Below, in pieces: positions 22,451-26,551 of a stretch of DNA of 26,551 nucleotides; the first letter of the stretch is position 1; every line of letters starts with the position of its first letter. The position numbers and the translations under genes are program-made. The notes beneath the pieces are model-generated. The model saw only the letters and a program-made list of their open reading frames with translations. It did no database searches and was not told where the DNA came from. Source of the stretch: Chlamydiota bacterium (GTDB taxonomy: Bacteria > Chlamydiota > Chlamydiia > Chlamydiales > RGXB01); NCBI GenBank assembly GCA_947494155.1, contig CANLTW010000017.1:1-26551 (forward strand), in the 5' to 3' direction.

Positions 22451-22758
22451 AGCTGCTCCCCAAAAAATAGAAAAGACGATACGAAAACCTATAGCAGAAA
22501 AGCTTTTAAACCAACAGATGAAAAAAACGAGTTTTGGTCCGTTTTGCATTTCATGGAGAGGGGAGCTCCAAACGCCACTATTTTCCCCTACGAGAGCAAT
22601 CCTGCTCTATCTTTTGATGAAAAAACTCCTCAACGGACAACATCTTCTAGGTTTTTTGTTGTCTAAAGAGGTGTCTAACTTACTAAAAGAAAAAGGTTAA
22701 TCATCTTAGATGTACAAAAAAAACCATTGATTATATCTATAAATCAAAAGGGAAAGGC

Positions 22759-22878
22759 ATGAAAAAAAAGACAAGTACTAGTAAGAAAGCTTTAAATAAA
22801 AAAGTAGCCAAAGGAAAGAAATCACCAGTCAAAGGGGGGGTTACAGAGGAACCCGTCCCTGCTATACCGATCAATTAA
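22759..22878 (+). CDS. Small Lys-rich-leader/GG peptide P1 (39 aa): MKKKTSTSKKALNKKVAKGKKSPVKGG-VTEEPVPAIPIN
   Basis: Hand-translated. GGAAAGG upstream of the ATG; shares a 41-bp leader block with P2. Confidence 0.7.
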   Translation: MKKKTSTSKKALNKKVAKGKKSPVKGGVTEEPVPAIPIN

Positions 22879-22968
22879 CAAAAACCTAAATAAAACGAAG
22901 AGGACAAATGAAGAAGCAACCAAAGGCAAAAGTAGCCAAAGGAAAGAAATCACCAGTCAAAGGGGGGG
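22800..22968 (+). repeat. 41-bp exact direct repeat (22800-22840 and 22928-22968) encoding KVAKGKKSPVKGG
   Basis: AAAAGTAGCCAAAGGAAAGAAATCACCAGTCAAAGGGGGGG occurs twice; the sequences diverge after the G run. Confidence 0.92.
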
Positions 22969-23120
22969 GGGAGACAATCAAAGCAACTAGCGGGCAAACT
23001 TCAAATATGGATCCAAATTGTGGAATACAAAAGGTCCGCGAATATTAAAACGAAAAAGATAGCCATAATCTATTGACAAAACGAAGAGGACAAATGAAGA
23101 AGCAACCAAAGGCAAAAGTA
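22892..23120 (+). repeat. 43-bp exact direct repeat (22892-22934 and 23078-23120) covering the RBS and MKKQPKAKV
   Basis: AAAACGAAGAGGACAAATGAAGAAGCAACCAAAGGCAAAAGTA occurs twice. Confidence 0.92.
22908..23048 (+). CDS. Small Lys-rich-leader/GG peptide P2 (46 aa): MKKQPKAKVAKGKKSPVKGGG-ETIKATSGQTSNMDPNCGIQKVREY
   Basis: Hand-translated. GAGG RBS; leader blocks shared with P1 and P3. Confidence 0.78.
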   Translation: MKKQPKAKVAKGKKSPVKGGGETIKATSGQTSNMDPNCGIQKVREY

Positions 23121-23252
23121 CCCAAAAGAAAGAAAACTACAAAGAAAAAGATTGCTGGGGGGGGGGCGTATGGTGTTGATACAAGTTATCCAAAGTGTAT
23201 AAAACAAGAATGTGTCGGCAATCCCAGCAAATCTTTTAGAAATCTAAACTAG
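23094..23252 (+). CDS. Small Lys-rich-leader/GG peptide P3 (52 aa): MKKQPKAKVPKRKKTTKKKIAGGG-AYGVDTSYPKCIKQECVGNPSKSFRNLN
   Basis: Hand-translated. Same RBS block as P2, two Cys in the core. Its TAG overlaps the fabI TAG in a CTAG palindrome at 23249-23252. Confidence 0.78.
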   Translation: MKKQPKAKVPKRKKTTKKKIAGGGAYGVDTSYPKCIKQECVGNPSKSFRNLN

Positions 23253-24172
23253 CCTCTTGACAAGACGAGCGCCTCTTCTTTTTGGATCACTTTTTGTGTA
23301 GGTCTCCCCATCACGCCTAAGCCGTGATCGACAAACAGTACCTGCCCTGTAATCGCTTTTCCTAGAGGGGAGGCCAAAAAGAGCATTGTGTTGGCGACGT
23401 CTTCTGCTTCCAAATCTCTTTGAATAGGAGAGTTATGAAATGAGTACTCGATCATTGAATCAATCATACCAATAGCACGTGCAGCTCTAGAGGCCAACGG
23501 CCCTGCAGAAATGGCGTTTACGCGGATCATTTTTTCTTGGCCCAGTTCGTAGGCGAGATAGCGCACATCGGCTTCTAAAGCGGCTTTAGCGGAAGACATA
23601 CCCCCTCCATAACCAGGGATCACCTGATCGGCAGCGCGATAGGTAAGCGTTAGGCAGGATCCGTTTGGCTCCATAAGATTTTTGAAATGGGAACAGAGGC
23701 TAACGAAAGAGTAGCTAGAGGCGCTTATTGCGTGTAAATAGCCCTCTCTGGAGGTCATAGACAAGGGGTTTTTGATCTCTTTGGCATTTGCAATTGCATG
23801 AATTACAATATCCACTTTTTTAAAATCTTGGGCAACAGCAGATACAAAGCCGCTAATCGAAAAGTCTTGGAGTCCTTTATAGCGTTTATTTTCTTTGACT
23901 TCAAAAGGGACCGCGTCAAGGGTGTCGTATAGTGCATCTAATGGATAGATGGCATCAAAACTAAGCTCTTCACCATTTTTAAGCCTTCTGGATTCACTAA
24001 ATTTTTCATTTACCAGGATTTGTTCTAAAATTCCGAGCAAGGGGGGCCAGGTGCCTGCGATTACTTTCGCTCCAAGATTTTTGAAGGCCTTAGCAATAGC
24101 CCAGGCAAATCCCTGGTCATCGCCAATACCGGCAATCACAACAACCTTATCTTTTAAGTCCCATGGATCCAT
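23249..24172 (-). CDS. fabI: Enoyl-[acyl-carrier-protein] reductase (NADH), chlamydial/plant-type
   Basis: AGIGDDQGFAWAIAK, GTWPP, YPLDA, NKRY insert, TSREGYLHAISASSYS, catalytic YGGGMSSAKAALE and ISAGPLASRAA. Confidence 0.97.
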   Translation of the reverse strand: MDPWDLKDKVVVIAGIGDDQGFAWAIAKAFKNLGAKVIAGTWPPLLGILEQILVNEKFSESRRLKNGEELSFDAIYPLDALYDTLDAVPFEVKENKRYKGLQDFSISGFVSAVAQDFKKVDIVIHAIANAKEIKNPLSMTSREGYLHAISASSYSFVSLCSHFKNLMEPNGSCLTLTYRAADQVIPGYGGGMSSAKAALEADVRYLAYELGQEKMIRVNAISAGPLASRAARAIGMIDSMIEYSFHNSPIQRDLEAEDVANTMLFLASPLGKAITGQVLFVDHGLGVMGRPTQKVIQKEEALVLSRG

Positions 24173-24400
24173 ATCATTTCTCTCAAAGCTTTATCTATTG
24201 CAAGAATATACTACGAAGCTTGTTTTCCTGTTAACCCTGTTTTGTTTTGCTACTGCTAGTCGAAACAACAAAAGAAAATAGGCGTCTCCTAGTTTCTCTA
24301 GGTTAAAAAAGCCCTCTTTAATAGGAGATTTCATCGGTTTAACTCTTTAAATCGACAAAAAAGCCTATTCATATTACCAAAAAATTAAAGTGTGGGATGT

Positions 24401-24547
24401 ATGAAAAAAAAACAAACACCAAAAAAGAAAGCTGTAAAAAAGAAAAAAAATACTAAAGGTGGAGAGTGTGTTCAATCTGGTTCTTTTTGGGGGCAATGTA
24501 AAAACGATGGACCTGATGATTTTTGGAGAACCAATTTAATCAAATAG
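24401..24547 (+). CDS. Small Lys-rich-leader/GG peptide P4 (48 aa): MKKKQTPKKKAVKKKKNTKGG-ECVQSGSFWGQCKNDGPDDFWRTNLIK
   Basis: Hand-translated. GGGA upstream; 11 Lys in the first 19 aa, KGG hinge, core with 2 Cys and 2 Trp. Confidence 0.75.
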   Translation: MKKKQTPKKKAVKKKKNTKGGECVQSGSFWGQCKNDGPDDFWRTNLIK

Positions 24548-24644
24548 TGGGTTAATTTTTTTAAGGTTCACTCTCCCCTTTACCTATTTCAACTTAGCAG
24601 GGTTATATTGTTTTTCATGAGACTTCTAGCTATACTTTTGAAGT

Positions 24645-25865
24645 ATGCGACACAAAAATGCCTTAATCCTCAAAGCCTTTGAAAGGCACTACCAAGAGGA
24701 GACAGGGTTTATCCATTTTGGGGTAGTAGCTCCTATTTTGGAAAACGCCCTATTTGCTTTGGCCCTTTTTAGAAAAAAAGAGCAAAAAACTATGCTGGAG
24801 GGAAAGGTGCTTCTATTGCGTTTGCTCTCCTATCAAAGCTCATCTGGTCTATTTCCCGACGCAGTCCATCTACTGGATCATGGCCATTTTTCCTGGAAAA
24901 AGAATCTCTACCTTGCTGCCGTTTTTACCCATCTTCTTAGAGAATTTGACCGGGTGATTGATAAGGTGTCGAAGGAAAAGATCCACCGCTGCTACACTTT
25001 TCTGATCGACGGATTAAAAAAGCTGGAATTGGGCGGAGCCCTTTTATTTTTGCGCTCTCTCCTTTTAGAAGAAGACCCTTTTCCTCTGGCCCCGTTAGAA
25101 TCCCAAGAAGAGGTGGAGATTTTTGTTGTCGGTTATGCCATAGCGCCTGAATCGCAACGACTTAAATTTGAGGAAATCCTTTCTTGGTACGTACTCAAAG
25201 ATGCCCCTTTTTATCAGGGCCCTTTTGAAGGGGTCAAGCAGTACAAGGGTAGGCTATTAAAATCTTTGATAGAAATTTCTCTAACTGTCGAAGAGGAGCT
25301 GAATGAGGAGGAGGCGATATTCGATAGGGTGTGGATGGAATCGGTTTTGGCTCCAGATCTTTCGCATATTAAAGGTCAGGCATTTTGGGTTCGCCACAAG
25401 GATTTAAGGGAGAAGGGGGATCTTTATGCTCTGGCTTTTTTGGATTTAAAACAGGGGCTTACAGCTGCTTTGTATCTTCCCCAAAACACCTTTTTTGATC
25501 CAAAAACATCGATTTACACTTTTTCACTTGAGGGTTTTTATGAGGAGGATACTCATGAAATTAGCCTTTACATCCCTAAATCCCCCTCTATTGAAGTCCA
25601 TGTTGATCAGGTAAAATCTTCGATTTTTCGAGAAAACGAGTGTGTAATGATTGATACAGAAGGTCAAACCATCCCCCTAATGTTTCGCATTGTTGAAGGG
25701 GATGGGAAGTTTATAGGGCATATAAGTTTGGATTCCAGACCCAATGAAATGGAAAAAGGGGGAATTTACGACAGAAAAATCTCGATTCGAACAATCGAAA
25801 GATCTTTGAGTTGCAAAATAGAGCTTTTTATTGGTTGGAATCAAGAGACCCTCAACTCTCTTTGA
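24645..25865 (+). CDS. Hypothetical protein (N-terminal helical region, C-terminal beta-rich region)
   Basis: 406-aa ORF with ATG start. No motif I can assign with confidence. Confidence 0.75.
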   Translation: MRHKNALILKAFERHYQEETGFIHFGVVAPILENALFALALFRKKEQKTMLEGKVLLLRLLSYQSSSGLFPDAVHLLDHGHFSWKKNLYLAAVFTHLLREFDRVIDKVSKEKIHRCYTFLIDGLKKLELGGALLFLRSLLLEEDPFPLAPLESQEEVEIFVVGYAIAPESQRLKFEEILSWYVLKDAPFYQGPFEGVKQYKGRLLKSLIEISLTVEEELNEEEAIFDRVWMESVLAPDLSHIKGQAFWVRHKDLREKGDLYALAFLDLKQGLTAALYLPQNTFFDPKTSIYTFSLEGFYEEDTHEISLYIPKSPSIEVHVDQVKSSIFRENECVMIDTEGQTIPLMFRIVEGDGKFIGHISLDSRPNEMEKGGIYDRKISIRTIERSLSCKIELFIGWNQETLNSL

Positions 25866-25914
25866 ACAAAAAGCTCTTTATAGGGAGAACCACTGATTCT
25901 TCTTTTTGGGCTAC

Positions 25915-26046
25915 TTAATCATGTCCACAAACTTTTATGTCACCTTTTTGGGGGATACTAATCCATGACCCTTCCCCCCCCCCGAATTTTTTAATATTTT
26001 TTTTGTTTTTAGCCTTACTTTTTTTAGTTTCTGCATTCTTTTTCAT
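25915..26046 (-). CDS. Small Lys-rich-leader/GG peptide P5 (43 aa): MKKNAETKKSKAKNKKNIKKFGGG-EGSWISIPQKGDIKVCGHD
   Basis: Hand-translated on the minus strand. AGGGGA RBS upstream; same leader/GGG/core layout. Confidence 0.75.
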   Translation of the reverse strand: MKKNAETKKSKAKNKKNIKKFGGGEGSWISIPQKGDIKVCGHD

Positions 26047-26258
26047 AGAATTCCCCTAATTATAAATTCCACTTACAACTAATTACTTTTTTTAGCAAAA
26101 ATAGACTTTAATCCAGGTATACCGACCAGGCCTCACCTCACTCTCTTTGATTGTCCTCGCCCTAGTTTGAATAGTCCCAACCTTTTTGGAAAAAAAAACT
26201 TGCAATTTTTGAAAATTCAGATAGATCCAAAAATTAGAAGAACATAAAAGGGTTTTTT

Positions 26259-26374
26259 ATGAAAAAGCATCCAAAGATCAGCCATACAGCTGCAAAAAAG
26301 ACAGCAAACGCCTTGGTCAAAAATACAAGGGTGGGAATTATTCCACAGATTATGGCATGAATTCCCACAAATAA
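26259..26374 (+). pseudogene. Possible frameshifted sixth member (P6): MKKHPKISHTAAKKTANALVKNT, with KGGNYSTDYGMNSHK in the -1 frame
   Basis: The in-frame ORF 26259-26360 reads ...KNTRVGIIPQIMA. One extra base near 26327 would give NTKGG, matching the P4 hinge (KNTKGG), and a stop at 26372-26374. Confidence 0.4.
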
Positions 26375-26551
26375 TTGCCAACCAACAGGTTAGATCGACA
26401 TAGCGGGGTTATTTTTCGGAGTCCCTCTTCATTAACCCTTTAAACCCATAAATAAACGAAACAGTGTCGACTCCCTAAAAAAAATAAGCTCCCCATTCAG
26501 CGCAACTTGTTCATTATCAACAAGCTATTTTCTCTTACCCCCCCCCTTTTT

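Follow-up and report, generated by a model that had tools for sequence, protein, structure and literature searches.

Lysine-rich double-glycine peptides with hypervariable cores in a chlamydial genome that encodes NHLP-type C39 exporters

Prochlorosins are made from many ProcA precursors with Nif11-type leaders by one promiscuous enzyme, ProcM, which includes a cyclase, and the double-glycine (GG) leaders described so far are, to our knowledge, acidic and hydrophobic. On the export side, the cassette of TIGR03794, TIGR03796 and TIGR03797 was defined via NHLP and Nif11 precursors (Haft, Basu and Mitchell, 2010; PMC2887384), with a leader logo that shows, in the portion of the paper drawn on here, acidic residues, Leu, Val/Leu at position 10 (equivalent to position -4) and GG at positions 12-13. 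In Legionella, the putative NHLP-type bacteriocin type-I secretion systems LB2SS and LB3SS have, as far as the part of the source used here goes, been defined by transporter proteins alone (PMC6959600), and clusters resembling those of RiPPs (peptides that are made on the ribosome and then modified post-translationally) have been predicted in chlamydiae outside the Chlamydiaceae as a category-level antiSMASH call (Dharamshi et al., 2022; PMC9666466, in the part considered). Here we describe a family of small lysine-rich GG peptides, five of which (P1 to P5) are encoded on CANLTW010000017.1, a contig of the assembly of an uncultured freshwater Chlamydiota bacterium (GCA_947494155.1). This stretch of 26,551 bases, analysed at its full length and referred to as the window, is contig C17 of G000, a genome of 1.41 Mb in 24 contigs with 42% G+C. 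With a probability of roughly 60%, we consider the peptides to be exported double-glycine precursors with a new, polybasic leader, processed by the NHLP-type C39 exporters of the genome and perhaps dehydrated by a LanM-type enzyme without cyclase; their cleavage, export, modification and function are what we infer from genomic evidence.

An earlier note on the same DNA had read five small genes out of the end of the window, and all of them are present where it had placed them:

P1, 22759-22878, plus strand: 39 amino acids (aa); leader of 25 aa with 11 Lys, no acidic residue and net charge +11; GG; core of 12 aa with no Cys.
P2, 22908-23048, plus strand: 46 aa; leader of 18 aa with 8 Lys, no acidic residue, net charge +8 and V at position -4; GGG encoded as a G10 run; core of 26 aa with one Cys.
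P3, 23094-23252, plus strand: 52 aa; leader of 21 aa with 10 Lys, no acidic residue, net charge +11 and I at position -4; GGG encoded as a G10 run; core of 29 aa with two Cys.
P4, 24401-24547, plus strand: 48 aa; leader of 19 aa with 11 Lys, no acidic residue and net charge +11; GG encoded as GGTGGA; core of 27 aa with two Cys.
P5, 25915-26046, minus strand: 43 aa; leader of 21 aa with 10 Lys, one acidic residue and net charge +9; GGG encoded as a G10 run; core of 20 aa with one Cys.

Its description of 8-11 Lys per leader next to almost no acidic residues and of Cys in four of the five cores agrees with these counts, as does a purine-rich ribosome-binding site (RBS), since a purine-rich stretch lies 5-10 nucleotides (nt) before each of the five ATGs. 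The stop codon of P3 overlaps the 3' end of a convergent fabI-like gene, whose relatives are all found in chlamydial metagenome bins.

The family to which these open reading frames (ORFs) belong is real and non-random and comprises at least 13 genes in this chlamydial genome. A formal pattern required an ATG start, a length of 20-120 aa, six or more Lys, a K+R share of 33% or higher, no more than one acidic residue, GG at residues 11-40 and a remainder of eight or more residues from the GG to the ORF end. It matched 12 ORFs genome-wide (11 independent genes and one overlapping-frame shadow of P5), compared with two matches in all, or 0.07 per genome, in 30 genomes that had been shuffled locally, ten for each block size of 60, 150 and 500 nt. 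A profile built from the members gave 13 matches in the genome, and one further member, on contig C8, was spotted by eye beyond the pattern and profile matches. The genome-wide scan and the comparison with shuffled DNA that the earlier note had called for thus yield a working family of 13 intact genes at eight loci, with five copies on the window contig C17, two each on C10 and C13 and one each on C14, C18, C7 and C8. A match to a known family such as the histone-like proteins, which by the earlier note would have counted against its reading, was not found: the five window peptides match no NCBIfam family at E <= 10, and Pfam returned two sub-threshold, chance-level matches for P4 and none for the other four. 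A Protein Atlas look-up of P4 gave no usable match.

Among the 13 members, leaders of 18-25 aa with a net charge of +7 to +11 are followed by cores of 11-29 aa with a net charge of -2 to +3, which contain Ser/Thr in 13/13 and Cys in 11/13 cases. The GG is invariant in 12/12 and 18/18 aligned members, and it is there that the family similarity stops. At position -4, relative to the cut expected after the GG, V, I or L is found in seven of the 13 leaders, compared with hydrophobic residues at 19 of the remaining 240 leader positions. Nominally, a binomial test puts this preference at 2e-5, a value that is overstated, since the paralogs are not independent. The cores had been called mutually unrelated in the earlier note, which holds in so far as they are otherwise unalignable, but they do share weak features: a Cys 2-3 residues after the GG in 6/13 cores, a Pro approximately 10-14 residues after the GG and, in many cases, a C-terminal Cys.

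Conservation of the leader and hypervariability of the core are visible at the DNA level between paralogs and between strains. P2 and P3 are 97% identical over 58 nt that span the RBS and the start of the leader, the 3' half of the P1 leader is identical in DNA to the 3' half of the P2 leader, and the leaders of the two C10 copies are almost identical; in neighbouring paralogs the DNA similarity covers RBS and leader and ends at the GG. The clearest strain pair concerns the C8 member, which was compared with a metagenome contig of the same species over a background of 98.65% identity in 13.7 kb. While upstream region and leader, together 139 nt, show no difference and the 47 nt behind the variable part differ at one position, 10 of 24 core nucleotides and 5 of 8 residues are exchanged (FTTPGSKP to QAIPGGRP), as amino-acid replacements with the frame kept. 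The same behaviour is shown by the protein-collection variants P0002, P0003 and P0009 of the C10 and C13 copies, which keep the leader and change the core, and by a P2 variant (P0008) with an unchanged leader and two residues altered just after the GG. An X16 contig from the RNA libraries (24444-24764) differs from the P4 region at 27 positions, of which 20 are listed; 17 of these 20 fall within the 84-nt core and the other three just behind it. For P5, the allele in the RNA-library contigs from X15 and X16 differs in both the leader and the core.

Whole copies come and go as well. A DNA contig of another strain, which also differs upstream of 23259, where P3 lies, joins position 24295 to 24577 with four other letters in between, so that P4 including its upstream region is subject to a presence/absence polymorphism of 281 nt (24296-24576). 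No convincing inverted or direct terminal repeats surround P4, and there is therefore no sign of a transposable unit. In a relative with a fabI product of 90% identity (L026), the order is secretion-gene block, 406-aa gene and fabI, with spacers of approximately 130-150 nt that hold no peptide genes. Compared with it, fabI and the 406-aa gene are swapped in the window (22527-26046), and peptide genes sit at every junction. The swap in gene order, the filled junctions and the P4 polymorphism together mark the peptide genes as putative recent and mobile additions to variable spacers. Rapid evolution of the cores and turnover of the copies fit secreted peptides used for competition, signalling or interaction with a host. 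A diversity-generating retroelement was considered as a source of the core changes and is unlikely because no reverse transcriptase gene was found in the genome and the changes are not adenine-specific.

Metatranscriptome contigs of three runs from three lake studies span P3 and P5 entirely and P4 over its core. The entire P3 ORF lies on an X16 contig (22969-23307) and the entire P5 ORF on contigs from X15 (25716-26047) and X16 (25824-26051), and a contig of the third run (X17, 25746-25983) includes the core half of P5. Two spacers, 24251-24377 and 26156-26400, are uncovered in those RNA runs and covered in a DNA run. Many lake metagenomes contain the locus itself (20 of 24 listed runs in 14 studies). 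Beyond the species, the C7 copy has a frame-keeping ortholog beside dnaA in a sister species (G002), and G006 holds several members that include an ortholog of the C14 copy.

Candidate machinery for processing and export is encoded by the genome itself. Peptidase_C39 (PF03412) occurs twice (E 2.2e-37 and 1.1e-33), each time within a three-gene cassette that also includes an ATP-binding cassette (ABC) protein without peptidase domain:

C5:59202-61424: C39 exporter, preceded by an HlyD-like gene and followed by an ABC protein of approximately 990 aa without peptidase domain.
C8:48476-50689: C39 exporter, preceded by an HlyD-like gene and followed by an ABC protein of approximately 990 aa without peptidase domain.

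The best models for the six cassette proteins are TIGR03794, TIGR03796 and TIGR03797 (NHLP bacteriocin export), with scores that lie just under or over the equivalog cut-offs. The C8 exporter aligns over its full length with the peptidase-containing ABC transporter (PCAT) PCAT1 (4RY2; E 3.5e-90), and the motifs with the catalytic Cys, His and Asp align as well. In an alignment of 11 chlamydial exporters, among them the C5 exporter, the Cys and His columns do not vary. Five TolC-like genes are present in the genome. Canonical substrates are missing: the best genome-wide match to the NHLP leader (TIGR03793) is not significant (E 0.114, inside a 314-aa frame) and the Nif11 leader (TIGR03798) has no match at E <= 1, from which it follows that this genome encodes no canonical substrate for the exporters.

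The C8 cassette is part of an operon in which a 156-aa gene, a 187-aa gene and a DUF4135 gene are followed by HlyD, PCAT and second ABC genes. The DUF4135 protein, an ORF of 535 aa, represents the LanM-type dehydratase domain alone (PF13575, E 1.8e-51). It matches TIGR03897 over model positions 10-271 and aligns with LicM2 (E 1e-21) and CylM (E 2.3e-10), with conservation of the DFHxEN...D motif, whose residues we take to be catalytic. The ORF ends at 535 aa, and a LanC-like cyclase (PF05147) has no match in the genome at E <= 1. As to its operon partners, the 187-aa protein has no family match and its predicted structure, with a mean predicted local distance difference test score of 43.7, is unusable, and the 156-aa protein has a weak AhpD/CMD-like match under the cut-off (E 1.9e-4). 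A 368-aa oxidoreductase of the DAO family, dependent on flavin adenine dinucleotide, is encoded by a divergently transcribed gene 50 nt from the HlyD gene of the other cassette (C5:56966-58072; L032:4966-6072). A similar gene order in G001 (L051) has a 329-aa ORF in place of the DAO gene.

Peptides and machinery meet at the C8 operon, where the C8 member lies on the same strand 360 nt upstream of the 156-aa gene and thus at the head of the dehydratase-HlyD-C39 exporter operon, an arrangement that is conserved in a second sample. The search for processing genes near other copies, recommended in the earlier note, was fruitful in this respect, and the supposition of that note that the machinery lies elsewhere or is provided by the host can be narrowed down: two C39 exporters and a LanM-type domain are indeed found elsewhere in the genome, and supply by the host is not needed. 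Related neighbourhoods exist in three other genomes. In G001, a K/R-rich GG ORF precedes HlyD-PCAT by 179 nt, and in G044 an export cassette has beside it a 91-aa ORF that combines GG with a polybasic leader. In G014, from a different chlamydial family (L045:1650-2137), an NHLP-like ORF of 110 aa (TIGR03793 E 2.1e-12, under the cut-off) overlaps with its stop codon the start of a 52-aa ORF with a Lys-rich N-terminus and a canonical LSxxELxxLxxAG-type end, which stands directly before HlyD-PCAT-ABC2.

Within a set of 61 chlamydial genomes, the peptide profile matches three, all of one genus, an NHLP-type PCAT is encoded in nine (6 of 55 genera) and DUF4135 in 12, mostly as stand-alone ORFs of 513-567 aa. 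G000 and G006 are the sole genomes of their genus with several profile-type members and also the sole two with DUF4135, which, as the two are close kin, is only a hint at a pairing of peptides and enzyme. The profile found nothing at E <= 10 in the sister genomes G001, G003 and G005, and it under-detects, because inspection by eye revealed a divergent member in G001. Among 5.8 and 1.84 billion proteins, a profile of 38-42 lysine-rich positions retrieved variants of this species only (10 and 7 matches), a result that has little power and does not show absence elsewhere. A metagenome scan with the DUF4135 protein returned one locus, of the same species.

If the peptides are exported double-glycine precursors, the shared leader, which is short, unstructured and strongly cationic, would be recognized by two NHLP-type type-I cassettes, each composed of an HlyD-like adaptor, a C39 ABC exporter and a second ABC protein, with a TolC-like outer-membrane protein, and the C39 peptidase domain would cut after the GG during export. 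Beforehand, the single LanM-type kinase/dehydratase domain, which stands alone, could dehydrate Ser/Thr in some or all cores, and rings would, without a cyclase, form spontaneously or be replaced by a disulfide between two Cys. The proposal of the earlier note, a library of double-glycine precursors with a new leader type, is thus borne out for the family, its leader and core pattern and the presence of exporters in the genome, with cleavage after the GG as the predicted part. A more far-reaching and tentative version would be a prochlorosin-like combinatorial system, in which one dehydratase lacking a cyclase and two C39 exporters serve at least 13 dispersed precursors via the cationic leader, with the cores under strong diversifying selection, so that the set of secreted (dehydro)peptides, with which a strain would compete, signal to kin or manipulate a host, might be particular to each strain. 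For the dispersed copies, modification is purely what we infer.

Several observations weigh against the assignment as exported precursors. Canonical GG leaders have acidic and Leu positions and hydrophobic residues at -7 and -12, all of which are absent here, and no hidden Markov model recognizes the polybasic leaders. Twelve of the 13 members, including all five window copies, are not adjacent to an exporter or modifying gene, and one adjacency would be expected by chance in this genome with a probability of approximately 10%, a rough estimate based on about eight loci and two zones of about 20 kb. In the G001 copy, the frame is lost at a G8 run, beyond which another frame stays open. Across genomes, G002 has an ortholog and no NHLP-type PCAT was found in this 89% complete genome, and G003 has a PCAT and no profile match even at E <= 10. 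Decay is evident from a C10 copy with a stop codon, a pseudogene (C10:31403), and from the C18 copy (C18:20812-20919), which breaks off at an A8 run where a 65-aa variant continues. The RNA evidence consists of assembled contigs that inform neither on strand nor on start or level and may include DNA carry-over. P1 is the weakest of the five window ORFs; its core has no Cys, and no RNA-library contig covers it, which says nothing about silence. Two further computations concern recognition of the leader: the predicted complex of the C39 domain (residues 1-170, alignment of 11 rows) with P4 (alignment of 12 rows) scored 0.00 in both runs and speaks neither for nor against it, and the net charge of the C39 domains of the 11 chlamydial exporters ranges from -7 to +6, with no pattern that matches polybasic leaders.

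Alternatively, the peptides might be effectors, directed at the host or otherwise secreted, that bypass the C39 exporters as type III substrates or carry a polybasic tag for cell entry or nuclear targeting, with the GG as a flexible joint. The unlinked copies neighbour housekeeping or eukaryote-like genes, namely the fabI-like and the unknown 406-aa gene in the window and, elsewhere, F-box (C10 copies), two ankyrin-repeat and two patatin-like phospholipase genes (C14), a CesT-type chaperone gene (C7) and dnaA. For the copies on C10, C14 and C7, this setting suggests variable regions rich in effectors. The window also carries secretin, FliO-like and tetratricopeptide repeat chaperone-like genes, and hypervariable cores with presence or absence among strains fit effectors too. 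However, the peptide beside the CesT gene is encoded on the opposite strand, and the invariant GG, the V/I/L at -4, the member at the operon head and the exporter neighbours in three other genomes favour the C39 route, which makes the effector explanation unlikely. Still less plausible are small basic cytoplasmic proteins that bind nucleic acids, ribosomes or polyphosphate and are never processed. The extreme charge of the 18-25 residues speaks for a functional Lys-rich part, and conservation of precisely this part would be expected if the function sits there, but Pfam and NCBIfam hold no corresponding family, and neither 13 paralogs, strain-specific loss and pseudogenes nor 10 of 24 base changes confined to the C-terminal tail would be expected of such proteins, the restriction to one genus (three of 61 genomes) being equally at odds with them.

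Slippage at a G7-G10 run in the hinge might, in phase-variable contingency genes, switch the tail on, off or to another sequence. Five of the 13 members have a G run of at least 8 exactly at the hinge, the G001 copy is out of frame at such a run with another frame open beyond it, and contigs break at G runs. The other eight members, including the operon-linked C8 member, lack the long run and use mixed Gly codons, though, and the one comparable run, the G10 run of P2, is spanned without gap and at equal length by a DNA contig of a different sample. Among the Gly codons of the genome, GGG is used most often (34.5%), and G/C runs of at least 8 are common genome-wide (89 compared with approximately 10 in shuffles), some inside conserved genes; the hinge runs probably reflect codon preference and give no evidence for a switch, and phase variation is very improbable. 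Hardly any weight is left for the view that the ORFs arose by chance in intergenic A-rich DNA or are pieces of a repeat that does not code: they are indeed short and A-rich, P5 is overlapped by another K-rich frame, and a promoter and terminator scan showed no promoter-like or terminator-like excess, yet the number of pattern matches vastly exceeds that in shuffled genomes, the genes possess RBSs, ATG starts, frame-keeping orthologs in sister species and RNA-library contigs, core changes replace amino acids within a kept frame, and Rfam gave no match.

Additional sequences resemble the family and are not counted in it. Two of them are located near the end of the window:

26259-26360, plus strand: possible degenerate member, an ORF of 33 aa with a basic MKK start and no GG; profile E-value 0.53, start 62% identical in DNA to the start of P1.
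26529-26551, minus strand: possible sixth copy that the contig end cuts off, in which an A-run and then a G9 run resemble the P1 hinge; 76% match to 22831-22851, with the leader expected past the contig end.

Several contig ends lie in or next to G/C runs (C2 start and C24 end, C2 end and C16 start, C17 end, C19 end), and some of them repeat each other, so that the G000 assembly seems to break at such runs. Several looser look-alikes are present in the genome. A 78-aa ORF on C14 (C14:6836-7072; L003:2336-2572) has a Lys-rich N-terminus, a GG encoded as a G8 run and an acidic tail of 48 aa, and a related stretch without ATG is found on C22 (L006:362-481); both may be a divergent subfamily or decayed copies. 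In the 65-aa variant related to the C18 copy (P0010 of the protein collection), the frame continues into a Cys-rich tail, which is present out of frame downstream of the C18 copy. Of the counted members, the C13 pair (C13:28057-28326) shares the strand of an operon for a tripartite HlyD-like/major facilitator superfamily/TolC-like pump (C13:28555-32777; L069:5555-9777) and lies 229 nt downstream of it. Next to stand-alone DUF4135 genes in G026, G017 and G059, there are ORFs of 41-77 aa that have a TKCCA[TG]GT-like motif in common and no NCBIfam match:

L062:959-1192: ORF with TKCCA[TG]GT-like motif.
L064:947-1174: ORF with TKCCA[TG]GT-like motif.
L066:2822-2947: ORF with TKCCA[TG]GT-like motif.

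These ORFs look like a second, different precursor family for LanM-type enzymes without cyclase.

Should the exported-precursor reading hold, a leader of nearly pure lysine that retains GG and, at -4, a hydrophobic residue would make plain how few leader features the exporters or their partner enzymes need, and would let genome mining search by a new pattern for precursors that escape gene callers and family models. Type III effectors are what Chlamydiae are known for; beside these, the peptides would constitute a second output of secretion, one made of peptides and different between near-identical lake strains, and such differences hint at competition or recognition among symbionts or with hosts. 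The prochlorosin-like version would, if true, make the family the phylum's first defined library of secreted peptides. As a stand-alone protein, the LanM-type dehydratase domain was found in 12 of the 61 chlamydial genomes and offers enzymology a lead of its own.

Among described systems, prochlorosins are one with which the family shares one modifying enzyme, many dispersed precursor genes, a common leader, hypervariable cores and turnover at the strain level, and from which it differs in the polybasic leader and in an enzyme that comprises the dehydratase domain only. With the GG leaders of class II bacteriocins and competence pheromones, which AMS/PCAT transporters cut, it has in common a short leader, the GG, in seven of the 13 leaders a hydrophobic residue at -4, and the Cys/His/Asp motifs of the exporter (PCAT1, 4RY2; ComA, 8HF4). 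In contrast to those, the leaders described here are almost without hydrophobic and acidic residues at a charge of +7 to +11, the organism is a chlamydia with an outer membrane, and no immunity or two-component genes are found nearby.

The likeness to NHLP and Nif11 systems, as these are presented in the portion of the defining paper referred to above, lies in the same three-gene cassette, in a similarity that ends at the GG with a short variable core behind it, in many paralogs per genome that are not all clustered with the machinery and, in some cases, in a LanM-like enzyme (PMC2887384). The leader of 18-25 polybasic aa instead of approximately 70-90 aa, without homology to NHLP or Nif11, is different, as is the absence of a cyclase domain from the LanM-like enzyme, and of the published logo only the hydrophobic residue at -4 and the GG remain. 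Legionella LB2SS and LB3SS equally represent an NHLP-type cassette with two ABC proteins in a eukaryote-associated bacterium, defined, going by the part of that source considered, by transporter proteins alone (PMC6959600); in the present case a candidate substrate family is defined. The clusters reported by Dharamshi et al. (2022) come without description of a precursor family in the part of the paper considered (PMC9666466), and the statement of the earlier note that no such system is known in chlamydiae accordingly stands for the peptide family, which we have not found in print, but not for RiPP-like clusters as such. A literature search, subscription journals excepted, gave no description of lysine-rich GG leaders, chlamydial C39 exporters or stand-alone DUF4135 proteins. 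Known, in sum, are the export cassette and GG leaders, and new, in our reading, is a polybasic leader variant of a known export system.

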